Assembly (NCBI GenBank): GCA_963833985.1
Contig: CAWIAD010000002.1
Span: 1,568,001-1,632,000 of the forward strand
Direction: 5' to 3'
DNA length: 64,000 nucleotides
Source: an uncultured Planctomycetaceae bacterium
GTDB lineage: Bacteria > Planctomycetota > Planctomycetia > Isosphaerales > Isosphaeraceae
A program made the translations under genes and the position numbers. The notes beneath the pieces were generated by a model. It did not search any database. It was given only the letters and a program-made list of their open reading frames with translations, and was not told where the DNA came from. Below, one piece after another: positions 3,040 to 64,000 of this stretch. The first letter of the stretch is position 1. Every line of letters begins with the position of its first letter.

Positions 3040-3245
3040 GAGGGACGCACCCTGCTCCCTCAATTGCCCGGATCAGGTCGCGCCGTTTTCGAACCTGCAA
3101 TACCAAGGGCAACCGCCCGCCATCTGCGGGAGCCGGTGGCTTCTCATTGATGACCAGGAAATGGTATCCGTGATGGACGTTTACCGGGTGCTCATCCAGC
3201 GAGTCACCCTGGCTGAAGATGCCGGGAACATCGACGAGGTATCTG
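3040..3245 (-). pseudogene. Decayed hicB-hicA toxin-antitoxin remnants
   Basis: Minus strand reads YLVDVPGIFSQGDSLDE (HicB 'PG..SQG.tldE' motif) and, further downstream, KRRDLIRAIEGAGCV (HicA N-terminus); no intact starts. Confidence 0.55.
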
Positions 3246-3259
3246 GCTTACCGTCGCCT

Positions 3260-3487
3260 CTATGCGGCATCGACGGCTTCATACACTTTGCCGACTTGCT
3301 TCAACCAGGCGACCTCCCCTTGTTGTGCATGTTCCTCAACCTCTCTGAGCCAGTTTATTGTTTCCGACTCATAACATGGCTCAGTGGGGTCGTCTGGGGG
3401 AATCACCATCTCAACCTCTACGGCCACAACGTAGCGCTCGGAGTGGACCCATCGAGTTGTCTTGATACGCTCTCCTGGAATCCGCAT
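3260..3487 (-). CDS. Small hypothetical protein (75 aa), possible antitoxin-like
   Basis: MRIPGERIKTTRWVHSERYVVAVEVEMVIP...GKVYEAVDAA; GAGG RBS upstream; lies between TA remnants. Confidence 0.6.
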   Translation of the reverse strand: MRIPGERIKTTRWVHSERYVVAVEVEMVIPPDDPTEPCYESETINWLREVEEHAQQGEVAWLKQVGKVYEAVDAA

Positions 3488-3492
3488 AGCGG

Positions 3493-3592
3493 TTAACCTC
3501 GATCGAAGAAATGGACGGTCACCAGTTTTGCAACCTCGCTCCTCGGCAGGTAGGACCAGACTGCCTTGAATTCGGTTCCGTCGGGCAGAGAA
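3493..3592 (-). pseudogene. 3' fragment of a small toxin-like gene truncated at the MITE
   Basis: GSLPDGTEFKAVWSYLPRSEVAKLVTVHFFDRG* ends 5 nt before the 75-aa gene; its 5' part is replaced by the repeat element. Confidence 0.4.
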
Positions 3593-3739
3593 CCAGCGCG
3601 GTTTTCTGACGGTTGCGGCAGTTTGTGAATTCTTGAAAGGGGGGGCAGACATTCCTGTCTGCCAGGGCAGGCCTGCTCCGGCAGGCAGGAATGCCTGCCC
3701 TCCGGTGTCAGTCTGCGATCCGAGTGAAAACCGCACCTG
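3593..3739 (+). mobile_element. MITE/REPIN-like element, copy 1
   Basis: TIR GCGGTTTTC...GAAAACCGC; internal palindromes GGCAGACATTCCTGTCTGCC and GGCAGGCAGGAATGCCTGCC; homologous to 51847-51984 and 61837-61987. Confidence 0.85.
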
Positions 3740-3787
3740 TGACCCATTCATGGCCTCTCACCGCATCACGAGCGTCCTGCCCAGATT

Positions 3788-3828
3788 GCGTAGGTGAGCG
3801 GGTGCCATCGGCCCGCACGACCTACGCA
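3788..3828. repeat. GTAG-type REP-like hairpin
   Basis: GCGTAGGT..GCGGG..CCCGC..ACCTACGC inverted repeat just downstream of the hyi-like gene. Confidence 0.5.
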
Positions 3829-3865
3829 CTTATTACTGGTTTGCTCACTGGCGATGCGGCACATC

Positions 3866-4768
<903 letters not shown>

Positions 4769-4849
4769 CTGCGAGTTCTCCTGATACAAGTGCGGCAGGG
4801 GCAAACCTGGACACATTGTCGCAACCCGGGCGGGCTGTCGCCAGAACCC

Positions 4850-5160
4850 AGCGAGTCGTCCGATCTCACGGGCTGGCCGCGACGGCAGTGTGGCGTTGCC
4901 GCGCAGGTCGCGCGGGAACCCGGGCGGGCAGGGAGGAGCGACGTAAAGATCGCGGCCCCCGGGCACCCAGAACCGGCCGAACGGATAGTGGCGGCAGGCG
5001 TAGGTGAAGTAGGACCACGCGCCCATCTTGATGAGCCGCGGGTCCTGGGTCGTGGCTCCGTTGAACCCACGACGCTCGGGCCCAGCACCGGTTCCCGCGA
5101 GACGCGCTCGAAGTGTTCGCCGTCGCGGCTGGCCGCCAGGCCGAGGGAACGCTCAGACCG
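4850..5160 (-). pseudogene. Fragment of a GH130-like glycosidase/phosphorylase
   Basis: SLGLAASRDGEHFERVSREPVLGP, then in another frame DPRLIKMGAWSYFTYACRHYPFG; ~100 codons, broken frames. Confidence 0.55.
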
Positions 5161-6500
5161 ATTCCACCTCAGGATGAGCATACGGCTGCCGGTAGGCCCG
5201 GCGCAGCAGCCGGTTTGCCTCTTCATCGTCGCGCACGCGTCCCTTGTCGGCGTCCCAGGCGATGGTGCGGCCGAGCTGGAGCGACAGGTTGGCGAGGATG
5301 CAGCTCGCGGTCGAGATGTGCCCCTCCTCGATGTCGGCCACCGGCTTGCCCCGCGACTGGATGGCCCTCAGCAGATCGATCAGGTGGTAGCGAATGGCCG
5401 GCGCGACGTGCCGCTCCAGGTCCTTCTCGGTGCGGTCCTCCGGGTACCGGTCCAGCTCGTAGGTGACATCCTTGTGGATGGGCGTTCCGCCTCCGTAAGG
5501 GATGAAGTCGTAGCTGTAGACGCTCAGCTTGAGCGTTCCCTTGTCGCCGTAGAGGGTCGCGCCCCAGGGATAGTTCGGGTCGACCTCCTGGCCCCAGGTG
5601 CGGTGCTGCCAGACGACGTTCAGATCGTCGAAGTCAAAGGTGGCGATCTGGGTGTCCGGAACGTTGGCCTTGCTGTTCTTGTCGACCAGGATGCCACCAG
5701 CCGAGGAGATCCGCCGGGGCCAGCCCAGACCCAGCATCCAGCGCACCATGTCGAGCATGTGGATGCACATGTCTCCCAGGATGCCGTTGCCATACTCCTT
5801 GAACGACCGCCAGCCGCGCGGGTGGATCATCGGGTTGAAGGGCCGCATCGGGGCCGGCCCGCACCACGCGTTCCAGTCCAGCGAATCGGGCGGTGCGGCG
5901 TCGGCTGGCTGACCTTGTCCGCGCATGTGATAATAGCAATACACTTCGGCATGGCCAATCTTGCCGAGCTTCCCTTCCTTGATGATCCGGTCGCGCGCTT
6001 CGATGAGGTGTGGCGTGCTGCGGCGCTGGGTGCCCACCTGGACAACGCGGCCGTGCTTGCGCCGCGGCGACCATGGCCTGACCCTCCACGACGTCCACGC
6101 TGATCGGCTTCTGGCAGTAGACATCGGCGCCGGCCTCGACGGCGGCGATCATCGTCAGGGCGTGCCAGTGATCGGGCGTGGCCACCAGCACGAGGTCGAG
6201 GTCTTTCTCGGCGAGCATCGCGCGGTAGTCGGTGTAGGTCCGGGGCGTCTTCTTCGACGCCTGACGCGCCGCGGCCATCTCGGCGGCTCTTGCAAGCATG
6301 TTGCGGTCGACGTCGCAGAGCGAAACGATCTCGATGGGTGCCACCTGGATGAGCCGCCAGAGATCACACTTGCCGTACCATCCCGAGCCGATGAGGCCCA
6401 CGCGCTTCGGCCTGTCATCCCAGAGCGCCCGGGCATGCTCTCCGAACGACGATAACGCAAGCCCGGCGGCACCGGTTTGCAGGAACGCGCGACGATTCAT
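5153..6500 (-). CDS. Gfo/Idh/MocA oxidoreductase, Tat-exported (frameshift near 6060)
   Basis: MNRRAFL, GLIGSGWYG, ATPDHWH, YCQKP then VQVGTQRRS, GDMCIHMLD; two overlapping ORFs join. Confidence 0.9.
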
Positions 6501-6650
6501 GGCAAGTCTCCCTGGCCGAGGCGATCTGGCACGGACCCAGCTCTTACACTTTAGTGAGGCTCCGGCCCCTCCGCGAGGGGGCAGTCCTCAAACCGGGCCG
6601 ATCGGGGGCGGTGTGCGTTGCGGTCGCCCTCGTGATCCGGCCCGACACAG

Positions 6651-6679
6651 AAAAACGGCCAGGACAGTTGTCCTGGCCG
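6651..6679 (-). terminator. Probable intrinsic terminator
   Basis: 11-bp stem CGGCCAGGACA/TGTCCTGGCCG followed by TTTTT on the minus strand, downstream of the HEAT gene. Confidence 0.6.
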
Positions 6680-6709
6680 CGGGATGAACCGGCGTGAGAC
6701 GAGGCGCCG

Positions 6710-7393
6710 TCACCGTGCTCTGGGGCGGAGCGATTCCTCGGCGCGGCGAGCGCCCGTCTTGACGTAGTCCGGCACGTCGGCCTTATCGAGATGCTCGTAG
6801 ATCGCCTGGGCCTCCTTGCGCTGGCCCTGGCTGCGGAGGACGTCCGCACAGCGGAAGAGGCCTTCGCTGACGGCGATGCGGTTGGCCTGGGGCGTGCTGG
6901 CGAGGGTCTTCTCCAGCGCGGTCGCGGCTTCGAGGTTGCCAATCTTGCCGAGCGCCCGCGCGGCCGCCTGCACAACCTCGGGATCGGACTCGCCAAGGCA
7001 CTTGACGAGTGCCGGGACGGCTGTCGGGTCGCGGCGCACGCCAATGCTGCCGATCACCCCAACGAGGAGACGGCCCTTGACCTTGCCGAGCGTGTCGCGA
7101 AGGGCGCTATCCACGGCCGGGTCCGGAATCGGTTCCAGGCCGTAGCGCGCCATGTGAGAGAGTTCTTCGTTGCAGAGCAGCGCGGCCAGGGGTGCTACCG
7201 ATTCACGAGTACCAATGCGTGCCAGCTCGCGGCAGGCGTCGGCCTTGGCCTTGCGGGGCGCATCCGACTTGAGGACGGCGATCAGCCTGGCTTCTTCGTC
7301 CTTGGCCGAGCCCTGGGCTTTCTGGGCGAAGGATTGCGGGGACGCGGCGACCAGCAGGGAAACCGCTGCGAGGGAGACGAGCGTTCTGTACAT
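6710..7393 (-). CDS. Secreted HEAT-repeat protein
   Basis: Signal peptide; KADACRELARIG, ARYGLEPIP, AVPALVKCL..D.EV..AAARALGKIG repeats. Confidence 0.85.
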   Translation of the reverse strand: MYRTLVSLAAVSLLVAASPQSFAQKAQGSAKDEEARLIAVLKSDAPRKAKADACRELARIGTRESVAPLAALLCNEELSHMARYGLEPIPDPAVDSALRDTLGKVKGRLLVGVIGSIGVRRDPTAVPALVKCLGESDPEVVQAAARALGKIGNLEAATALEKTLASTPQANRIAVSEGLFRCADVLRSQGQRKEAQAIYEHLDKADVPDYVKTGARRAEESLRPRAR

Positions 7394-7419: not shown

Positions 7420-8754
7420 TCACATGATCCATGGTTCACGCTGGGCCCGGCTCCGCAGCCGGTTGGCTTCCGCATCGTTGACGAATTCTTCCTTCACGGG
7501 GTCGTAGTGCATGTCGCGCTTCAGCCACATGCAGATATTGGCGGCGTGCACCGTGCTCATCGAGCGGTGCATGACCTCGGGGTTGGCCACGGTCTGCTGC
7601 CGCGACTTGACGCAGTCGAAGAAGTTGCGGACGTGGTTCATGGGCCGCCGGGTGCGTTCCATGTACTCGGCCACGAGTTTGTCGGCCTCGGCGAGCAGTG
7701 ATGGCGAGGAGACTTCGGGCTTGTCGTAGCCGTCGGCGATGGTCACCCAGCCCTCGGTGCCCTCGAACCTCATTCCACACGATCCGTGCCAGCCCTCGCG
7801 CTGGAGGATCATCTGCACGCCGTTTGCGAACCTGGTCACCATGCCGTCACCGCTGTCGTTCTTGACGTAGCGGTATTCGATGGCGGAGGTGTTGAGTGCG
7901 TCGATGCCCGCCTGTGACTGGGCAAAGGTGTGGGCGCCCCATTCACCGATGCAACTGGTGTGAAAGTCGTAATGGCCGCGCCAGCTGCCGCGCACGTACG
8001 CGGGGTTGTAGGGCCGCCAGGGGCAGGGGCCAAGCCAGGTGTCCCAGTCGACTTCCTCCCTGGGCGGCTGAGTCTCGGCGGGGAGCCATGCGTGGTTCAT
8101 CTCGGCGGCATCCCAGGGGGCGATGTGCGCGCGGGCCGTGTGCACCTTGCCCAGCCGACCGGAACGGGCCAGCTCGATGGCAGCCACGAAGTTGCCCTCG
8201 CTGAGCCGCTGAGTGCCCGTCTGGTAGATGCGGCCGTAGTGGCGGGCGGTCTGAACCACGGCGCGGCCCTCGGCGATGGTCATGCACGAGGGCTTCTCGG
8301 AGTAGACGTCCTTGCCGGCCCGCATGGCCATGATGGTGGCCAGCGCATGCCAGCGATCGCCGGTGGCGATGAGCAGGGCGTCGATGTCGCCGCGGGACGC
8401 CAGAAACTCCCGCATGTCGGCGTACATCTTGCAGTCGCTATTGCCGTACTTCTTGTCGACCAGGCTCTTCACGTGTGCGCGACGCTCCTTGCGCACATCG
8501 CAGATCGCCACGAACTGCACGTCCTTCTCGGGCAACATCCAGTTCAGGTCATGCTCTCCCCGACTGCCGATGCCGATCGCCCCGAGGACAATCCGCTCGC
8601 TGGGCGCGACCGCACCGTCCCGGCCGAGCGCCGAGGCCGGCACGATCGTCGGTGCCAGCACGGCCCCGCCCGCTGCCGCGGTGGCCTTGAGACATGCGCG
8701 GCGCGTCAGTCGGGACCGGTCCTCTGTCCCTGTTCCGGATTTCGTTCCATTCAT
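7420..8754 (-). CDS. Gfo/Idh/MocA oxidoreductase, Tat-exported
   Basis: TRRACL, APSERIVLGAIGIG, IATGDRWH, YSEKP, YQTGTQR, EWGAHT. Confidence 0.92.
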   Translation of the reverse strand: MNGTKSGTGTEDRSRLTRRACLKATAAAGGAVLAPTIVPASALGRDGAVAPSERIVLGAIGIGSRGEHDLNWMLPEKDVQFVAICDVRKERRAHVKSLVDKKYGNSDCKMYADMREFLASRGDIDALLIATGDRWHALATIMAMRAGKDVYSEKPSCMTIAEGRAVVQTARHYGRIYQTGTQRLSEGNFVAAIELARSGRLGKVHTARAHIAPWDAAEMNHAWLPAETQPPREEVDWDTWLGPCPWRPYNPAYVRGSWRGHYDFHTSCIGEWGAHTFAQSQAGIDALNTSAIEYRYVKNDSGDGMVTRFANGVQMILQREGWHGSCGMRFEGTEGWVTIADGYDKPEVSSPSLLAEADKLVAEYMERTRRPMNHVRNFFDCVKSRQQTVANPEVMHRSMSTVHAANICMWLKRDMHYDPVKEEFVNDAEANRLRSRAQREPWIM

Positions 8755-9256
8755 TGCATCGCCTCCCTAGAGGTTCCTGGAGTTGGCCACGATGGCTTGC
8801 TTGCAAGGTCTCTTCGAGGCATGGACCCGCAATCCAGATACAGCATTCCCAAACCGGGCATCCCACTTGCAGGGGACGCATTGGGTTCACTTGAACGAGG
8901 AGCCACTGTTCCGAGTGGAACCCTGCCATCAATGGAACGCGATTACGCGGGGTGGGGACGTCCGGCCCGGCGGGTGAGCCTCTTGAAGTACGCGCGCATT
9001 GTCTCTCTTGGACTTCCCGGATACAAGCACCGACCCGGACCCCGGAAGTGAATTGCAACGCGTACCCCATGCGTGGCCGCGACGCATGGGAAGATGGCTG
9101 GGACCTTGGATTCTTGCAGCCCCGAATCCCTGGGGCCAGCGGAATTCTACGCTTATCCGCCGGCAGGATTTCTGTAAGATGAATTCAGGTGCGTGGAACA
9201 CATACGAAGTCACGCGTCAACAGGCCACCAGAGACTTTCACGTGAGGTGCAAGGGA

Positions 9257-9752
9257 GTGGTCGACGAGTCGATTTGCCGCCGCTTGCGTTTCCGGACAGG
9301 AACTCCGATCACCCTGGCTGACCACCAGGTCTGGACTTTCCCCGCGCCCACCGCCGATCTGGAGTCTGCCTCGGTGGCGGCCGAGGGCGAGTATCTCGGG
9401 CTCATCCACGCGATTCTCGACTCCGAGGACCAGAGTGAGCGGCGGCTCGCGGAGCTCGCCCTGGCGATTTTCCTGGTCAGTCTGAACTATCAGCTCAGCT
9501 CGGGCCAGCTCGCCGAGCTGTTCAGTTTCGGGCTACGATCACCCGAGCTGGTTGAATCGCAACGCGCGTTTCGAACGGCTCGCGCACGATCACATCCAGG
9601 CGCTCGCGAGGCGCGACGTGCTCGGTGCAACGGCACCGGCTCACGGCCCGGCCTCGCTGCCTCCCCATCGCCGCGTCATGGCCTGGATTCGCAACCGCGG
9701 CATCCTCCGCAGGTGGCTGACGAGTTGGCGCGGTGGGGAAGCCGTCCCTTGA
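9257..9752 (+). CDS. Hypothetical protein (frameshift near 9575)
   Basis: GTG after AAGGGA; VDESICRRLRFRTGTPITLADHQVWTFP...; continues in the 9552-9752 frame. Confidence 0.55.
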
Positions 9753-9887
9753 ATCGAAGGGCCGGCGCCGGTACCGGCCAGAGCAATCGATCAGGAATAT
9801 GCGGGAGGTTCCGTTACCGGGGCGAAGACCGGTGATCGCTCACCGGTCCCGCATCGGTCCGCGTCGAGTGACTCAGTGGCCGGTCGG

Positions 9888-10382
9888 TCACCGCGCCGCG
9901 GATTGAACGTTGACGTGTTTCTCGGCGATCTGGTTGAGCAGCTGGTCAGCCTGCTTCTCTTCCTCGAGCGTCTCACCCAGCAGGCGCTTGACCTCGCCAA
10001 GCGAGAGGTGCTCGGCCCAGGTGGACAGGCAGCCGTAGCCGGCGATCTCGTAGTGTTCCACTTTCTGGGCGGCCGCGATGAGACCGGCGTCGCGCACCTC
10101 GGGCTCGGCCTTGGCGTCCATCAACTCCTTGCCTTCCTCGACCAGTCCCTCCATGGCCTTGCAGCTCTTGGCCCTGGGCGAGTGGCTGAGATGCTTGAAG
10201 ACTTCCTCGAGCCTGGTGACGTGGCCCTTGGTCTGCTGGAGGTGGTCTTCGAAGGCTTGCTTTAGCTGCGGCGCGTGCGCCGCTTCGGCCATCTTCGGCA
10301 GCGCCTTGACCAGTTGCTTCTCCGCGTCGTAGAGGTCGCGCACCTGGTCGAGCAACAGGTCTTGCAGGGTCTGCATCTTCAT
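9888..10382 (-). CDS. Ferritin-like DUF892 (YciE/YciF) stress protein
   Basis: DLYDAEKQLVKALPKMA, CKAMEGLVEEG, DAGLIAAAQKVEHYEIAGYG, TLEEEK. Confidence 0.93.
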   Translation of the reverse strand: MKMQTLQDLLLDQVRDLYDAEKQLVKALPKMAEAAHAPQLKQAFEDHLQQTKGHVTRLEEVFKHLSHSPRAKSCKAMEGLVEEGKELMDAKAEPEVRDAGLIAAAQKVEHYEIAGYGCLSTWAEHLSLGEVKRLLGETLEEEKQADQLLNQIAEKHVNVQSAAR

Positions 10383-56138: not shown

Positions 56139-56411
56139 GACCTGGACGACTCCTCTGTGCATGGGCAACCGATCCACATCGAAACTATCCGTCCTGGGTC
56201 CTTCCTTCAAGCCTCGTCGGGGCGTCCTCGCGGCCACGGGGTTCGGGCTCCGCGGCAACCACCTTCGGAACTGTCTCCGGTCGTGCCCATGCATACAAGC
56301 GGGCGGGTTGGGATTGGCGCTTCGGGCCGTAGCGAATAGATTCGGCCCTTCCCGGCCGAGCTGGACGGTCGGCGGGGCTCCAGCTCCCACCTCATGGAGG
56401 AGCGACGCTTC

Positions 56412-58521
56412 ATGGGAAGAGGCAAGACCGCAAGATTCACCGCTATCGAGACGGCCGGGACGTCGCGCCTCGGTCAACTCGTGCCGGTCTGGGGCGCGCT
56501 CGTCGCCTGCGTGTGGACCACGTTCGCTCCTGTCCTGAGCAACGGGTTCATCGACTGGGACGACCCCAACTGGATCCTCCGGAACCTTTCGTTCCAGGGC
56601 CTGGGCTGGGAGCAGATCCGTTTCGCCTTCACGACGTTCAAAGGCGGCGTCTACCAGCCGCTCGGCTGGCTTTTTCAGAGCCTCACCTACGAGCTTTGCG
56701 GACTCGACCCGCGGGGCTACCACCTGGTGAGCCTGCTCTTCCACGTCGTCAACGTGATCCTCCTTCATCTCCTCTGTCTGAAGCTCCTCGAGACCGCAAT
56801 GCCCGAGGCGGCGAAGCGGCTCGGAGCTGCGCTCGGCTGGCTCTGCGGCGTTCCCGTGGTGCTTTACGCCGTCCATCCGCTGCGGGTCGAGCCGGTTGCC
56901 TGGGCCTCGTGCCAGGCGTACCTGCCTGGCGTGGCGTTCTCGCTGCTGGCGACCCTCGCCTACCTGCGCGCCCATCCCGCCGCGGAGCAGACCGCCGTCC
57001 CTGGATGATCGGCTCGTTCTTCCTTGTCGTGCTCGCCGTGCTCTCGAAGGGCTCGTCCGTCGTCCTGCCATTCGTGTTCCTCATCCTCGATGCCTATCCG
57101 TTGGGGCGGCTCGGCCCGGGCGTCCCTTCCTGGCCCTCGGTCCGGAAGGTGCTCGTCGAGAAAGGCGCCATCCTTCTCTTCTGCCTGACCTTCATGGCCG
57201 TGGCCTTCGCGGCCAAGCAGACCGGGACCGATCTCGAGGTGACCGCGCAGCCCGTGCCCGTCGCCAGGTTGGCCCAGGCCAGCTTCGGTGCCTGGTTCTA
57301 CCTTGCGAAGACCCTCTGGCCGTTCGGGATCACGGCCTTTTATCCCCGACCCGAGGGCGGCGATTTCCAGACGCCCCTTTTCGTTGCGTGCTTCGCCGGG
57401 CTCATCCTGGCCGCGGTGGTGCTGCTCTGGCAGCGGAGGAGACGGCCCTGGCTGCTGGCGGCCCTGGCCGCTTACCTGGTGATCGCTTCCCCCTATCTCG
57501 GCCTGGCGCGCGTGGGCAACGCCCTGGCGGCGGACCGGTACAGTTACGCCCCGACGCTGGTGTGGGTCGTCCTCGCCTGCGCTGGTCTGTGCCGGCTCGC
57601 CCAGCGCCGCTGGCCGCGACCGGTATGGATTGGAGCCGGGGCCGGGGCCGGCACGCTCGCGATCGCGTGCGGCCTCATGACGCTTGGCTCTGCCCAGTGC
57701 CGCGTCTGGGGCGACAGTGAGCGGCTCTGGGGCCAGGCGCTGCGCACGCCGGATGGAGCGCGGATGTGCACCATTTCATGGGCACGGCGCTCGCGGACGA
57801 AGGGAAGCTGGATCGTGCCATTGCCGAGTATCGCGAGGCCCTGCGCATCCGTCCCCACGACCATGAGACGACGTGCGACCTGGGTGCCGCGCTGCTCCAG
57901 AGAGGCGAGCACGATGCGGCCATCGCCTGCCTTCGCGAGGCCGACCGCATGGGACCGAAGGATCCCAGGGTCCTGCTCGGCCTGGGCCGGGCCCTGGTGC
58001 GCCGGGGAGATGCCGCCGAGGCCATCCCGCTCTATCGCGAGGCGCTGCGGTTCGAGCCGGATCATCCCAGCCTGCACTTCAACCTGGGCGTCGCCCTGCT
58101 CGATCAGAACAGGGTCGAAGAGGCGGCCACCGCGCTGCGCCGGGCCGTGGAGCTGCGGCCGTCGAATGCCGAGGCCCACGCGATGCTGGCTGGGGCACTG
58201 GTGCTCCAGGGCCGGCAGGCCGAGGCCGTCACGCAGTACCGGCAGGCCCTAGAATTGGAGCCGAACAACTCGGACTCGCGCATCAGCCTGGGACTGGCAC
58301 TGGCCCGGCAGGGACGTTTTGATGATGCGACCATCGAGCTGCGCGAAGCCATCCGGCGCGATCGGCAGAACGCCAAGGCCCACCACGTGCTCGCCGCGAT
58401 CCTCATGAGCCGTCGCCGAGTGGATGAAGCGACCGCCGAATTCGAGGAGGTCCTGCGGCTCCAGCCCGATCACCCCCAGGCGCGCATCTCCCTGGCGAAG
58501 CTGAGAAGCCGCCTCAGGTAA
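56412..58521 (+). CDS. TMTC-like membrane protein (GT-C-type N-terminus plus TPR repeats; frameshifts near 56985 and 57745)
   Basis: FIDWDD..I..N, YQPLGW, GYHLVSLLFH..N, HPLRVEPVAW, ADRYSY, about seven TPRs. Confidence 0.85.
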
Positions 58522-58892: not shown

Positions 58893-59183
58893 CGTGATTC
58901 CGGCGTGTCGTGCGAACGGCTGCTCATCGACCAGGAATCCCGGCGCGGTGGGTTCAGACATCAACCCGCCCAGACTGCATTCTGATCAAGCGTGCCGATG
59001 AAGGGGTCATCTGCCCAGACGCTGAAGAGGAGTCCAGGGGTGGCCCTCTTTGACTCAGTCCTTTCTTTTTTCCTGCTGCGGAAGCTGGGCCAGGGCCGGA
59101 GGCACACCCACGCACACAATCAGCCTCGCCCTGGCGCTGCCAGCCGGCTGTGATAAGCTGGGAACCAAAGGAGAAACCAGAGC

Positions 59184-59492
59184 ATGACGATCAATTTACC
59201 CGAGCATCTGGGGCAGCACGTGCACGACCAGGTCGTGGCAGGCCGTTTCCGTAGCGAGGACGACGTCATCATCGACGCCCTGGAGCGGCACAGGCAGGCC
59301 CAGCAGCCGGCCTCCCCGGCAAACTGCCGCGACGAGCCCAGCAGCCTGGAAATGCAGCGTCGCCTGTTCGAGGCCGGCATCATCAGCGAGATCAAGCCGG
59401 CGATCACCGACCTGACCCCGTATGGGAATCGCCCGGCCATCCCGGTCCGTGGGGAACCCCTCTCCGAGGCCGTCATCCGTGAGCGTCGCTAG
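59184..59492 (+). CDS. Antitoxin-like protein (RHH/ParD-like N-terminus, VapB-like C-terminus)
   Basis: MTINLPEHL...V..GRF.SEDDVI..AL; C-terminal GEPLSEAVIRERR; AAGGAG RBS. Confidence 0.75.
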   Translation: MTINLPEHLGQHVHDQVVAGRFRSEDDVIIDALERHRQAQQPASPANCRDEPSSLEMQRRLFEAGIISEIKPAITDLTPYGNRPAIPVRGEPLSEAVIRERR

Positions 59493-59494
59493 CG

Positions 59495-59722
59495 GTGGCC
59501 GCCTACGTCTTCGGCAAAAGTGCGGTGCGGGGGAAGCCAGCCGAGGAGGTAGCGATCCAGGATCAGGAAATCAAGACGCTGAAGGGACTCGTGACGAGGC
59601 TCGCCTTGGCGAAGGAGCGCGCTCAAGACCCAAAGCGGGCGAGTGAGATCGAGAAAGCGTACAAGGCCACCAAGGCCGAGCTTGATGCGCACATCCAGGA
59701 GCGCGCGGCCTTCTCGCATTGA
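59495..59722 (+). pseudogene. Chimeric ORF: first ~11 codons of a VapC/PIN toxin fused to an unrelated helical fragment
   Basis: Starts 2 nt after the antitoxin stop; MAAYVFGKSAV resembles PIN 'MA.Yf.DtSAlvK', then diverges. Confidence 0.5.
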
Positions 59723-59954
59723 CGGACCCGTGGTACCCCCGGAGGCATGGTGCAGTGCGGGAGGTCCGGATGCGGCATCGCGGGCAGAATGACACCGATC
59801 ATGATGTCCCCGGCGATTCAGCCGCAGATGCAGACGCTTGTTTTGAAGGATCGCTTGTTCTACCGGGACTATGCCAGGTTCATGTTTTTTGTCCGGTTCA
59901 GGTTGCCCTCAAGAATCAAACTCCGAGGCAGGCAGTGGCCTGTCTGACGCTCCC

Positions 59955-59984
59955 TGGAAAAAAACCGCAACCGCTTCCTATAAT
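59955..59984 (+). promoter_or_regulatory. Candidate sigma70 promoter of the Panacea operon
   Basis: Perfect TATAAT at 59979-59984, TGGAAA 18 nt upstream; ~80 nt before the start codon. Confidence 0.5.
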
Positions 59985-60064
59985 TAGCCTTCGGCTGAGG
60001 AGGAAAGAATTGCCTGTCGTAAGTCGAGGTGAGCCGGGAGGCGGGCCTCGGGAGGTGAGAAACC

Positions 60065-60508
60065 GTGGCTCCTTTCCCAAGACTCTGTAAGTCGCTTGAA
60101 TACCTTGTCGATCGATGGGGGCCTGTCGAGGGCCGTACCCGCATCATGAAGCTGATCTACCTCGCTGACCTGGAGTGGGCGAGGACGCACCGCAACACAC
60201 CGTACACCGAAGCGAGCTACTACCGCTGGAACCACGGGCCGTTCTCCCGCGAGGTGCTGCGTGCCCTTGAGTGGATGGACGGGATTGAACTCGTCACGTC
60301 GAACATCCCGTGGGTCGACGGCAACGCGTTCCGCTACAGTTCCGGGGAGAGCACCCGCCTGTCGGATGTAGAGATTGACCCCGAATTCGTGCATCTGCTC
60401 GACACGATCGGAAGCCGCTGGGGAAGCCGGCCGTTGCGGGAACTTCTGAAGCACGTCTACGGGGACGCAACGTTCACGAAAAAGGAGTTCGGTGAGCATC
60501 TGTTCTAA
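60065..60508 (+). CDS. Panacea (DUF4065/SocA-like) antitoxin-domain protein
   Basis: GRTRIMKLIYLAD, T...YYRWNHGPFSREV, L.EL..HVY motifs; GGAGGT RBS. Confidence 0.85.
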   Translation: MAPFPRLCKSLEYLVDRWGPVEGRTRIMKLIYLADLEWARTHRNTPYTEASYYRWNHGPFSREVLRALEWMDGIELVTSNIPWVDGNAFRYSSGESTRLSDVEIDPEFVHLLDTIGSRWGSRPLRELLKHVYGDATFTKKEFGEHLF

Positions 60509-60522
60509 AGTGCGGGGAAGAG

Positions 60523-61758
60523 ATGCTCCACATCGAGCACAGCGAGGACTACAAGAAACGGTGGCCGGTCGCTCAGAAGGCGGGCCTTATCCAGTCCCCG
60601 TCGTTGAAGGATAAGCCGCCAACCCCTTTGAAGATTCTGAACGCTGATGGTCTCCTTGATCTCTCGTTCATCTTCTTTACAGGCTGGCTCTTCACCGGCA
60701 TCCTGAACCGCACGAAGGACATCATCCGGATCTCCCTCGTCCCGTTCGGCCCGAACGACGAATCATCCATACTTGTGCTCTACAATCCGACGACCCACCT
60801 CGCCTCACCGTCCAGAGCGATCAGCGAGCTGTTTGATCCGGATTACTTTGTCTGCCCATTGGACCGCTCCGAGGGAAGGGATCTCTCGGGGACGCAAAAG
60901 CACCTCTGCCCTGTCGTCAACAAGCTCCGCTACAATCTGGCGCATGCCCGCCCGGATCGGAGCGTCGATGGTCTCAAGGAGCCTCACAAAACGCAGTATT
61001 GTTGCGAGTCGAGGAAGGTAAAGCTCTGGGAATACCTGCAAGGTGCAATCCTTGCCGACCCTGAGGTCTACGGGCCGATGGTCGGCGGTCGGTGCTACCC
61101 AATCCGGCTGCCGTTTTCGTTCCTCAGGAACTACCTGACGGGTATCGAGCCGAAGAACCTCGACCTCGGCAAGCTGCTCGAGGAGACACTCCTCTGGTAC
61201 GCGATGGACGCATCCGGCGTCGTCATGGGATTCGCCCACGCGCAGCCGATCGTGCCGATCGCTTTCAATGAGATTGACCTGATGCTCTACGAGCCGGGGA
61301 CCGACTTGCAAGGCGTTCTGATGCCGCCAACCGGACCGTGGGAAGCGTATCTGGGCAAGCACGCCGTCTGCCTCATGGAGCTCACCGTCGGGCACCAGCC
61401 GGAAGTCGCAAAGGGAGCTTCAGCTCAGCAGAAAGGAGAGACCGGCCCAGGTAAGGATGTGCCGAAAAACAAGCTGATGAACTTCTACGCGATGAAGTCA
61501 TTCGGCTTCCGCCTGACGCATGGTCACTACTTCACGGTGCTCGGCGAGTCGAGCCTGGCACCGCCCACTTTGCGGACGCTGGAAACCACCGAAGGATTCA
61601 CCTACCGTTGCTTATCGAACGAGTGCGGTGACGACATCGGGCGGCTCGTGCTCAACCATTCGGATGCTCCCGTTCCGTGGGAGAGAATCCGGAAATGGCA
61701 TGAACACCTTATCCGTATGGTCCTCGACGCTGCTAACATATTCCGGAGCAAAATCTAA
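60523..61758 (+). CDS. Hypothetical protein with putative PD-(D/E)xK-like nuclease domain; candidate toxin/effector
   Basis: 14 nt after the Panacea gene; FLRNYLTG..GKLLEE...NEIDL...LMELTVG; intact 411-aa ORF. Confidence 0.65.
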   Translation: MLHIEHSEDYKKRWPVAQKAGLIQSPSLKDKPPTPLKILNADGLLDLSFIFFTGWLFTGILNRTKDIIRISLVPFGPNDESSILVLYNPTTHLASPSRAISELFDPDYFVCPLDRSEGRDLSGTQKHLCPVVNKLRYNLAHARPDRSVDGLKEPHKTQYCCESRKVKLWEYLQGAILADPEVYGPMVGGRCYPIRLPFSFLRNYLTGIEPKNLDLGKLLEETLLWYAMDASGVVMGFAHAQPIVPIAFNEIDLMLYEPGTDLQGVLMPPTGPWEAYLGKHAVCLMELTVGHQPEVAKGASAQQKGETGPGKDVPKNKLMNFYAMKSFGFRLTHGHYFTVLGESSLAPPTLRTLETTEGFTYRCLSNECGDDIGRLVLNHSDAPVPWERIRKWHEHLIRMVLDAANIFRSKI

Positions 61759-61836
61759 AACCGGCTCGAGTTGAAACAGGCTCAGTGGGTTTACTGGATG
61801 ACGATGCGAACCTGATCGCGCCCAATCTACAGCGTA

Positions 61837-61987
61837 TTGGAGCGGTTTTCACTCGGATCGCAGACTGAGACCGGGGGGCAGGCATTCCTGCCTGCCGGAG
61901 CAGGCCGGTCCTGGCAGACAGAAATGTCTGCCCCCCCCCTCTCCAAAACTCAGAAACTGCCCGCAACGCGTCAGAAAACCGCTCTAA
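61837..61987 (-). mobile_element. MITE/REPIN-like element, copy 3 (best preserved ends)
   Basis: TIR TTGGAGCGGTTTTC / GAAAACCGCTCTAA (13/14); reverse complement of copy 1. Confidence 0.88.
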
Positions 61988-62081
61988 ACTGTCGCCGCGA
62001 CCCAGCTTCCCAACCCCGCATGGGCCAGAAGAAGCTCAATTGCCGCCCTGTCCCCTCAAGCCCGTGCGCGGGTCCCTGACC

Positions 62082-64000
62082 ATGCCGAGAAGAACGCTGA
62101 GCGACAAACCTGAAACACTGCCGAATGGCATTTGTGGGGGCCTTGGACTCCGAGTCCGCGGGATGTGGTCCTGGGCCGGCGCCTGGGTGGCGTGCCTGCT
62201 CTGCATTCATACGCTCCTCATTGGCCTGAGCCTGCCGCGAAACTCGGTGACTGTCGACGAGGTGTACCACCTGCCGGCCGGCATGAGTTACTGGCAGTTC
62301 GGCGAGTTCTGGTGCTATCACCACAATCCCCCGTTTGTGAAGCTCGCGTTCTCGCTGCCTGCTGTCGTGGCGGGCGTGCCTACTGATTACCGAAAGTACA
62401 TTCCCGGAGGCGACTGGCGGGGCGGCGAGATGAGCCGGGACTTCATGACGCTGAACAAAGACCGTTACATGAGCCTGTACGTGATGTGCAGGCTTGTGGT
62501 TGTGGCCATCTCGGTGCTCGGCGGCTCCCTTGTGTTCCGGTGGTCAAGGGAGCTATTCGGTGCGTGCGGCGGGTTCATCAGCCTGTCCATGTGGGTGTTC
62601 TGCCCGGAGATCCTCGCCCACGGCGGGCTGACCACGATCGATACCGGCGCGACGGTCGTGGCGCTCGCCGCGAGCTACGCGTTCCGGGCCTATTTCAAGG
62701 AGCCCAGCCTGGAGCAGGCGATCCTCTGCGGCGTGTTGCTCGGCCTCGCGGAGGCGAACAAGTTCTCGCTCGCGGTGTTGCCGGCGGTGTGGGTGGTCCT
62801 CGCGCTCCTGGCGGCCTGCACGGGCCGGCTCACCGCGAGCGGCGTAGCGGTTCCCTGGCGCCGCGTGCTCGGCCACGCGGCGTTCGTGTGCCTCGTGTCA
62901 CTCTACGTCCTGAACAGCCTCTACCTGTTTGAGGGCACCGGACGCCGCCTGGGGTCGTTCACGTTCAAGAGCCGGTTGCTGATCGGGCGGGAGGCAAACG
63001 ACCCCGAGACGCCCCGGCGCAGGGAACTGCTTCCAGGATACGTTGCTTGGCCGGGTGCCCATGCCGCTTCCCGAGCAGTACCTTCTGGGGTTCGACGACC
63101 AGATTCATGACGTGGATAGTGGCCACTATTACAAGTACCTGCGCGGTGAGCTGCGGCGTGGCGCCGGGTGGTATCACTATTATCTCTACTACCTGGCGGT
63201 CAAGACGCCGGTCGGTATGCTCGGCCTCATGTTCCTCGCGGCCTTACTCGCGTTGTGGCGCCGCGCGTACCGCCGGGATCTCGTCGATGAGGCTTGCCTG
63301 ATCGTCCCGGCCCTCGCGCTCTTCGTGGGTCAGCTCGCAAACGGGACTGAACTTCGGGCGCTGCGCGCTGCCCGTCTACCCCTTCGTGTTCATCCTGACC
63401 GGGCGGCTGGGGCCGTTCCTCGCGGCCAGCCGGCGATTGTGGTCGGTGGTCGTGGCCGGAACCCTGGTCTGGTCGGCGGCCGGAGCGATTGCCGTCTACC
63501 CTTACTTCCTGACCTATTTCAACGAGGCCGCCGGCGGCCCCGAGCATGGGCTCGAGCACCTGGCCGACAGCAATATCGACTGGGGCCAGGGTCTGGTGGG
63601 GCTCAAGGACTGGCTCGACGAGCACGCACCCGGGCGGGCCGTGGAGCTCGCCTATTTCGGGTTCATGTATCCGGAGGTCCTGGGCATTCGCTACGAGCTG
63701 CCGCCCTTCAGCGCGAGCGCCAATCCCGGCCGCGACGATGATGTCATCGGTCCCATCCCCGGCCTCCACGCCATCAGCGCCAATTACCTGATCGGCGTCC
63801 CTTTCATGTCGTCGAACGGTCATGGCTTGCAGACGGGTATACCGCTGAAGGCATACGCGTACTACCGCCGGTTCCGGCCCATTGCGGTCGTGGCTCGTTC
63901 GATTTACATTTATGAGATTGACCTGGACGAGGCGAATCGCGTGCGGCGCGAGCTGGGGCTGGCCGAGCTGAAGGACGGCGAGGCTCTTTTGCAAGCCCCC
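62082..64000 (+). CDS. ArnT/PMT-like (GT-C) membrane glycosyltransferase, frameshifts near 63020 and 63340, runs off window
   Basis: SVTVDEVYHLPAG, HNPP, PEILAHG.L.T.D, WYHYY.YYLAVKTP, YFNEAAGGP..G..HLADSNIDWGQ. Confidence 0.85.

Follow-up and report, generated by a model that had tools for sequence, protein, structure and literature searches.

Here, we show that a 64,000-nucleotide (nt) stretch of DNA from an uncultured Planctomycetaceae bacterium (family Isosphaeraceae; assembly GCA_963833985.1, contig CAWIAD010000002.1; the whole stretch is called the window hereafter) carries a real, rare and undescribed two-gene module. Gene 1 (60065..60508, + strand) starts with GTG and encodes a Panacea protein of 147 amino acids (aa), gene 2 (60523..61758, + strand) starts with ATG and encodes a protein of 411 aa, and both are open and free of frameshifts. 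The module is a candidate Panacea toxin-antitoxin (PanAT) system by the in-silico criteria of PMC8832971: it has a Panacea domain, a partner on the same strand within 100 nt (here 14) and a pairing that is conserved. We consider it probable, if only narrowly, that the locus is a type II toxin-antitoxin pair whose toxin is a Can2-like nuclease. The two genes had been singled out in an earlier reading of the bare sequence (the original prediction), whose description of tightly coupled open reading frames (ORFs) of 147 and 411 codons, 14 nt apart and without frameshift, agrees with these coordinates.

The two genes are consistently found together. Of 12 related loci, 11 have Panacea directly upstream of the gene 2 homologue, at identities between gene 2 proteins as low as 36%; the twelfth (L006) has suffered a deletion of Panacea along with gene 2's 5' half, and the remainder is frameshifted. 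The conserved pairing with DUF4065 genes that the original prediction expected in the gene neighbourhoods is therefore present, the twelfth locus being a deletion remnant. Of 121 same-family genomes, 4 have a member of this Panacea clade, every time directly before gene 2. For 23 of 48 other gene 2 homologues we found a Panacea homologue on a contig of identical size, which is an indirect sign of linkage; the unmatched homologues are uninformative. The two proteins also diverge in concert, since the identity matrices of 21 Panacea/gene 2 pairs are correlated (Spearman 0.60, 0 of 5,000 permutations). The Panacea tree itself is poorly resolved, with none of its 18 branches strongly supported. 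Neighbouring genes vary among the loci and there is no shared third neighbour, so the unit is made of two genes. Panacea genes often lie near unrelated mobile genes (PMC8832971), and the two genes might thus be chance neighbours inside a mobile island. We regard this as extremely improbable and rejected it, given linkage in nearly all loci down to 36% identity, the lack of a common third gene and the correlated divergence.

Decay of the module is asymmetric. A complete Panacea gene accompanies all six loci with a complete gene 2 (L001, L003, L004, L007, L008 and L010), as it does in the window, and no complete gene 2 lacking a complete Panacea was seen among the loci examined. The opposite arrangement does occur: in L002 and L005 a complete Panacea adjoins a broken gene 2. 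Overall, gene 2 is broken in three of its four same-family homologues (L002, L005 and L006). The lesion is a frameshift, possibly an assembly error, in L002; in L005 an IS4-family element (8577-10112) with an 11-bp target duplication lies in the gene 2 homologue, together with frameshifts, and Panacea is intact. Loss of gene 2 with retention of Panacea is the direction of decay expected of a toxin and its antitoxin, although numbers are small. A separate protein of 84 aa (P0120), a relic of an internal deletion in which the nuclease core was lost, joins the N-terminal part of Panacea to the C-terminal end of a gene 2 homologue. The module spreads by horizontal transfer and frequently decays.

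From its sequence, gene 1 is assigned to the stand-alone Panacea/SocA (DUF4065) proteins. It passes the Pfam model PF13274 (SocA_Panacea) with 30.1 bits for a cut-off of 25.7, as the original prediction had anticipated from motifs, and the match of its L007 and L010 orthologues extends over 107-109 of the 113 profile positions. No other Panacea gene was found in the host genome. Its motif HGPF (H57 codon at 60233) is a variant of the family signature GPV. HGPF is present in 36 of 42 Panacea homologues; GP is kept in all 42 and is followed by F (39) or Y (3), and by V in none. PanA of V. harveyi tolerated single changes of G or V in GPV (PMC8832971). The only match to PADLOC 2.0 models is weak (E 0.024), and so is that to the NCBIfam SocA model (E 0.04, 13.6 bits for a cut-off of 190). 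SocAB of Caulobacter, a type VI system, has an antitoxin of the same domain family. Gene 2 could accordingly be a toxin that Panacea delivers, as an adaptor, to a protease, leaving the active site unblocked. The Pfam match and the weak SocA match speak for such a role, and the two modes may coexist (PMC8832971). Yet, the SocA score is far below its cut-off, the partner is not SocB, and the PanAT pairs tested in PMC8832971 are independent of ClpXP and Lon, which makes this alternative very unlikely. Two distant relatives of gene 1 were also observed. The best plasmid match (31% identity) is a gene of a Haloarcula plasmid; upstream of it, at a distance of 235 nt, is a 246-aa ORF whose motif PD...EIK is nuclease-like (L052, 2968-4378, + strand). 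In a same-family genome (L053, 2-1773, - strand), a distant Panacea-like gene (E 1.3e-4) is directly upstream of another gene, in which we take the motif to be HD-phosphohydrolase-like.

The protein encoded by gene 2 belongs to a family that current libraries do not contain. The query matched no family in Pfam, PADLOC or NCBIfam, and 39 diverse members compared with Pfam, PADLOC and PHROGs gave nothing credible beyond chance matches of single members. The same members hit 0 families among the PADLOC 2.0 defence models at E up to 0.5. The original prediction, which called gene 2 unrecognised, thus stands, and no published description of the family was found in the literature searched. Homologues number 49 proteins, including the query, among 2,618 candidates, and 47 among 1.84 billion representatives. 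Nearly all are of about 390-460 aa or fragments, with no evident fusion to another domain. They are rare and patchy: 0 of 400 genomes in a sample of the phylum, 4 of 120 in the same family and 0 of 13 in the same genus have one, and all six named homologous loci are from Planctomycetota. Viral contigs, plasmids and phages were searched for homologues and none was found. Sequences of solved structures gave a single chance match (E 0.22). In the ESM Atlas, the protein resembles unnamed eukaryotic clusters (0.90-0.91) and a cluster of type I restriction HSDR_N proteins (0.84-0.85), which are leads only.

The fold is more telling than the sequence. An AlphaFold2 model built from 42 sequences has a predicted local distance difference test score (pLDDT) of 88.4 and a predicted template modelling score (pTM) of 0.89, with low confidence only at residues 293-310, a variable loop. 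Judging from the model, a PD-(D/E)xK fold with a restriction-enzyme-like core is well supported. The seven top rows of Foldseek are VC1899, Can2, Cdn1 and Card1, none with E < 0.001. In a wide VIA search the lead is taken by VC1899 (Z 8.7, root-mean-square deviation (rmsd) 4.5, 189 aligned residues), followed by Can2 8BAO (8.6) and Can1 (7.8), and the 18 top rows are chains that we take, by title or family, to be nuclease-fold. A second look with VIA returned only Can2, Card1, Can1, Cdn1 and VC1899 in its nine top rows (Z 7.4-8.9). The claim of the original prediction that gene 2 has a Card1-like restriction-endonuclease fold is thus upheld as a prediction, with the Can2/Card1 family ranking first in both tools. 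Alignments to proteins with a single CARF domain begin at chain residues 141-161, and this domain spans residues 1-145 in TbrCan2 (10.1101/2023.09.18.558242) and 3-151 in SthCan2 (PMC7969007). Hence, the match covers only the part that follows CARF. Identity to the Can2/Card1 family is about 10%, the Card1_endonuc model (PF09002) matches none of the 39 members at E up to 0.5, and a search of viral structures gave no E < 0.001.

The putative nuclease core (aa 214-410; 61162..61752, + strand) is supported by conservation counts, model topology and structural neighbours, and the model folds it as helix-strand-strand-strand-helix. All 39 members keep E/D220, E250, D252, E286, T/S288 and K317, and H239, G290 and N320 are invariant as well. 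The codons, on the + strand, are E220/E221 from 61180, E250xD252 at 61270-61278, E286xT288 at 61378-61386 and K317 at 61471-61473. In the model these residues belong to a helix (214-231), two strands (251-257 and 281-288) and a second helix (314-326). The active site of clade-1 Can2 is E-ExD-SxTTS-K, represented in TbrCan2 by E304, E341, D343, S356, T358/T359 and K369, and the change K369A abolishes DNase activity (10.1101/2023.09.18.558242). The alternative order within the Can2/Card1 family is E-ExD-(E/S)CK. In an alignment of PDB chains the clade-1 lysine is the second K of K-x-K, and a planctomycete clade-1 homologue has KNK at this place. Gene 2 shows the order E-ExD-ExT-K at the secondary-structure positions seen in clade-1 Can2, with a different spacing, the equivalences being made by order and not by superposition. 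The sequence thus predicts a hybrid site, E-ExD-ExT-K, in which Glu is retained where clade 1 has Ser, and K317 would be the counterpart of Lys369. The suggestion that the catalytic lysine is replaced in ExT and supplied by KNK agrees with the invariance of K317 and with the clade-1 precedent. What does not hold is its novelty: we rejected a new catalytic variant, because the displaced lysine was already described for clade-1 Can2. Clade-1 Can2 genes with an SxTT motif are themselves present in 7 of the 301 Planctomycetota genomes searched (L035/L037-L041), some of the matches being short.

The N-terminal half of gene 2 (aa 1-212; 60523..61158, + strand) is modelled as helices plus a beta-hairpin, a layout foreign to Rossmann and CARF domains, and no Rossmann alternation of strands and helices is present in these residues. 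The CARF motif NxTGGTK is absent in 39 of 39 members, which also match no CARF domain in Pfam. Part of this half aligns to the insertion region of Can2, which consists of two antiparallel strands with four helices around them (PMC7969007) and whose residues touch substrate (10.1101/2023.09.18.558242). The idea that the N-terminal half is a sensor is therefore unsupported and we set it aside. Alignments to Can2 span 129-210 residues and start from model residue 1, while bare cores have about 115; as they extend beyond the bare core, the simplest reading is that of an enlarged substrate-binding insertion. Some type II enzymes align as far into this half as Can2 does. The cysteines C111, C129, C160 and C161 (codons from 60853, 60907, 61000 and 61003) are conserved, as are N133, R136 and N138. 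Of 39 members, 37 have all four cysteines, and the most divergent one (P0162) has lost them jointly, which suggests that they form a shared metal site. On the model, a sensor is less likely than a substrate-binding insertion that is enlarged and has a four-cysteine site.

Together, these elements can be assembled into a mechanism. Panacea would bind the nuclease and keep the gene 2 protein silent, in line with the direct neutralisation of toxins by stand-alone Panacea proteins (PMC10440598). If Panacea were lost or displaced, upon stress, phage infection or loss of the element, the nuclease would be freed and growth would be arrested. Hydrolysis would involve two metals held by E220, E250, D252 and E286, and K317, on the helix that comes next, would play the part of Lys369 of clade-1 Can2; the outcome would be cutting or nicking of single-stranded DNA or RNA, as in Can2. 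The N-terminal half would provide the enlarged substrate-binding insertion, held by the four-cysteine metal site. The charges of the two proteins give no hint of complementarity.

This picture must be weighed against a number of less favourable observations. The Foldseek E values are 0.026 or higher, and the best Z scores (7.4-8.9 at rmsd 3.5-5.8) are near the 7-8 that the tool states as its typical best. EcoRI ties with Can1 at Z 7.8 in VIA, further restriction-fold chains come next, and the alignment of BbvCI with the gene 2 model extends over 200-205 residues. Comparison with Can2 by hhalign, with single sequences or with a shallow profile of 4-5 sequences, gave probabilities under 1%, so that residues are equated by motif order and secondary structure. 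The spacing differs too, with 34 residues from D252 to E286 compared to 13 in TbrCan2, and 29 from T288 to K317 compared to 11, because gene 2 has two insertions. We thus take the predicted fold to be well supported and hold the specific kinship to Can2, on the model, with moderate confidence only: the Z scores are close to the background best, yet hits and motif are consistent. As for the pairing, gene 2 encodes a protein that is large by the standard of type II toxins. In 90% of pair comparisons Panacea is better conserved than its gene 2 partner, and partner swapping was not seen within this clade, which is unusual for the hyperpromiscuous PanA. Among the 25 predicted pairs reported in PMC8832971, 9 were validated in E. 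coli, 5 were toxic without rescue, 3 could not be cloned and 8 were non-toxic. Finally, the window's 10 scanned flanking ORFs include no strong defence gene, and the enrichment of related loci in defence genes falls short of significance (4 of 8 long loci as against 2 of 10 control regions, p = 0.20). In this test a PADLOC match counted at E up to 1e-20 unless it was a generic kinase, sigma-factor or partial AAA match, and 30 of 123 locus ORFs, picked after Pfam, were compared with all 116 control ORFs. We therefore rejected the neighbourhood as proof of a defence role. One of the control regions (L063 3692-7089, in G437) has a methyltransferase and an intact-looking Septu (PtuAB) system.

The non-toxic pairs of that survey raise the possibility that gene 2 has the restriction fold but is not a toxin, or is a narrowly specific nuclease (of a nucleotide or of one structured nucleic acid) within a mobile accessory operon. 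VC1899, the top structural match, shows no more than weak, unregulated RNase activity (PMC7969007), and gene 2's N-terminal half has no identified function. However, the metal-binding acids and the lysine are fully conserved, and both the patchy distribution described above, with no occurrence in the phylum sample or the same genus, and the frequent pseudogenisation in the same family fit a selfish or defence element. We find this reading unlikely.

The high conservation of Panacea and its fidelity to a single partner would also fit a two-subunit defence nuclease, in which Panacea is the required reader or activator, responding to modified DNA or to a phage cue, and the nuclease is inert alone. 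The loci have no linked methyltransferase, restriction or defence genes directly adjoin the pair in L003-L006, the alignments of type II restriction enzymes reach roughly as deep into the N-terminal half as those of Can2, and the distant Panacea match of L053 is upstream of the gene with the HD motif, not of a recognised toxin. A sensor role for Panacea is moreover favoured in PMC10440598. This is at odds with the direct neutralisation of toxins by stand-alone Panacea proteins reported in the same work, with the decay of gene 2 beside a whole Panacea in L002 and L005 when intact gene 2 without Panacea was not seen, and with the antitoxin-first gene order, which is the usual one (PMC8832971). 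We are rather doubtful of an activating Panacea, and retain the inhibited nuclease toxin as the working interpretation.

The genomic context bears on how such a toxin might be triggered. The host genome (10.2 Mb, 96% complete) was searched for Cas10 (Cmr2/Csm1) and Card1-family genes and none was found, which fits a switch that is independent of cyclic oligoadenylate, and no cas genes were found among the 78 locus ORFs scanned. Neighbours in L003-L006 include a type IV restriction enzyme, Shedu, a Mokosh-like helicase, Hma-like genes and BrxL. No methyltransferase is conserved beside the pair; a single D12-type gene lies 1.8 kb upstream, in L008 only. In that locus (3079-7080) the pair stands between a terminase small-subunit-like gene and a gene for a gpA terminase ATPase, which suggests that it is cargo of a prophage-like element. 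One might go further and propose that gene 2 is a nuclease of the Can2/Card1 lineage which has shed its CARF alarm sensor, is gated by a dedicated phage-detecting Panacea and acts by abortive infection. We see this as a tentative possibility.

Other features of the locus complete its description. The 14-nt spacer between the genes (60509..60522, + strand) is purine-rich and likely contains the ribosome-binding site of gene 2, to judge from the sequence; spacers in related loci are likewise short. A sigma-70-like promoter candidate, TGGAAA-18-TATAAT (59955..59984, + strand), matches the consensus at 10 of 12 positions and lies 80 nt before the GTG of gene 1. By itself the site is weak, because two promoter-like sites in 59000-64000 are to be compared with 0.7 in shuffles (standard deviation 0.9). 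TATAAT has only two occurrences on the + strand of the window, its frequency in the genome is about 30 per Mb, and its position is kept in L001, the closest homologous locus. The GC content of the gene pair is 58.7%, for 64.9% in the genome, which places it in the lowest 4.2% of 5,995 tiles of equal size. The TATAAT and the lower GC content noted in the original prediction are thus real, and so are all its motifs (KLIYLAD, HGP, FLRNYLTG..GKLLEE, NEIDL, LMELTVG and KNK). Both genes are under purifying selection, with ratios of non-synonymous to synonymous substitution rates (dN/dS) relative to L001 of 0.17 for gene 1 and 0.14 for gene 2. Parts of gene 2 occur in two short soil-metagenome contigs of one study, with one difference in 188 nt and none in 151 nt; these may be near the source sample and lend weak support to the reality of the gene.

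Just upstream of the pair, the window has a ParD/CC2985-like antitoxin gene (59184-59492 and 59495-59722, + strand). A paralogue elsewhere in the genome precedes an intact PIN-type toxin; in the window the ORF that follows resembles the start of a PIN protein over some six codons only, hence an orphan antitoxin. A non-coding element of about 145 nt (61840-61984) with 11-bp terminal inverted repeats lies 80 nt after gene 2 and has 44 matches of at least 130 nt in the genome, like a miniature inverted-repeat transposable element (MITE) or a repetitive extragenic palindrome (REP). Two flanking genes, for a PMT-type glycosyltransferase (62040-64000, + strand) and a membrane protein with tetratricopeptide repeats (TPR; 56394-58521, + strand), appear spread over more than one frame, and relatives match across these genes; the cause is either frameshifts or assembly errors. 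Among 30 relatives compared, none showed an empty insertion site, and there is no tRNA within about 70 kb either side of the pair.

How new is this module? The known PanAT type II systems (PMC8832971, PMC10440598) share with it a Panacea gene in first position, a short gap, pairing across species, varied neighbours and a patchy distribution. It departs from them by HGPF in place of GPV, by the 411-aa partner and by the partner swapping unseen here. The ten characterised PanAT toxins (PanTs) in Table 1 of PMC8832971 are membrane, RNase (MazF-like), toxSAS, Fic/Doc and cyclase toxins, and this table includes no PD-(D/E)xK nuclease. The nearest predicted precedent is cluster T71 in Dataset S1 of the same work, in which Panacea comes first and the best HHpred match of the partner is VC1899 (95.45%). 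T71 has members in two haloarchaea (Halomarina oriensis WP_124956118.1 and Natrinema gari WP_049910555.1), with overlapping genes (gap -26 and -29). It is a prediction only, and its likeness to gene 2 is by description and not by sequence. That dataset also has three predicted planctomycete pairs, in clusters T1, T2 and T8. The part of the NetFlax supplement examined includes no match to DUF1887, Card1, Can2 or VC1899.

The structures ranked at the top belong to Can2/Card1 (DUF1887) and related proteins: TbrCan2 (8Q3Y/8Q41), SthCan2 (7BDV), Card1 (6WXW), Cdn1 (8Z4I), Can1 (6SCE) and Can2 (8BAO). Gene 2 shares with clade-1 Can2 the order of active-site elements, and Thr for the canonical Lys with a Lys on the next helix. 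Unlike Can2/Card1, it lacks both the CARF domain and NxTGGTK, neither a type III CRISPR locus nor Cas10 was found with it, and identity is at the low level given above; it has Glu for the clade-1 Ser, two core insertions and, in its N-terminal region, the four cysteines. VC1899 of Vibrio cholerae (PDB 1XMX), the best match in the wide VIA search, is an orphan DUF1887 protein that is not CRISPR-linked; unlike gene 2 it keeps CARF and has no reported Panacea partner, and only its residues 144-383 align. In the literature covered here, all Can2-family enzymes are built with a CARF domain. Gene 2 thus falls outside Can2/Card1, as it has no CARF, and is predicted to act like their nuclease part. 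The pair also differs from type II restriction-modification, for no linked cognate methyltransferase is conserved beside it. Of the new Panacea-nuclease pair announced in the original prediction, the part that survives is the undescribed family, since a pair of Panacea with a VC1899-like protein was already predicted as T71. Both building blocks are already on record, and so are the displaced-lysine site and the predicted pair of Panacea with a VC1899-like partner.

The module would be a candidate defence system of Planctomycetota to which current annotation libraries are entirely blind. As a simple two-gene system, it would lend itself to a test of whether stand-alone Panacea inhibits or senses. 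If our interpretation is true, a CARF-less relative bound to Panacea would mean that the nuclease scaffold is switchable by a protein instead of a cyclic nucleotide. Should Panacea sense phages, the pair would be an abortive-infection system joining type III CRISPR effectors and toxin-antitoxin immunity. If true, this would also be the first validated PD-(D/E)xK toxin controlled by Panacea, and a tractable case for understanding what Panacea senses.

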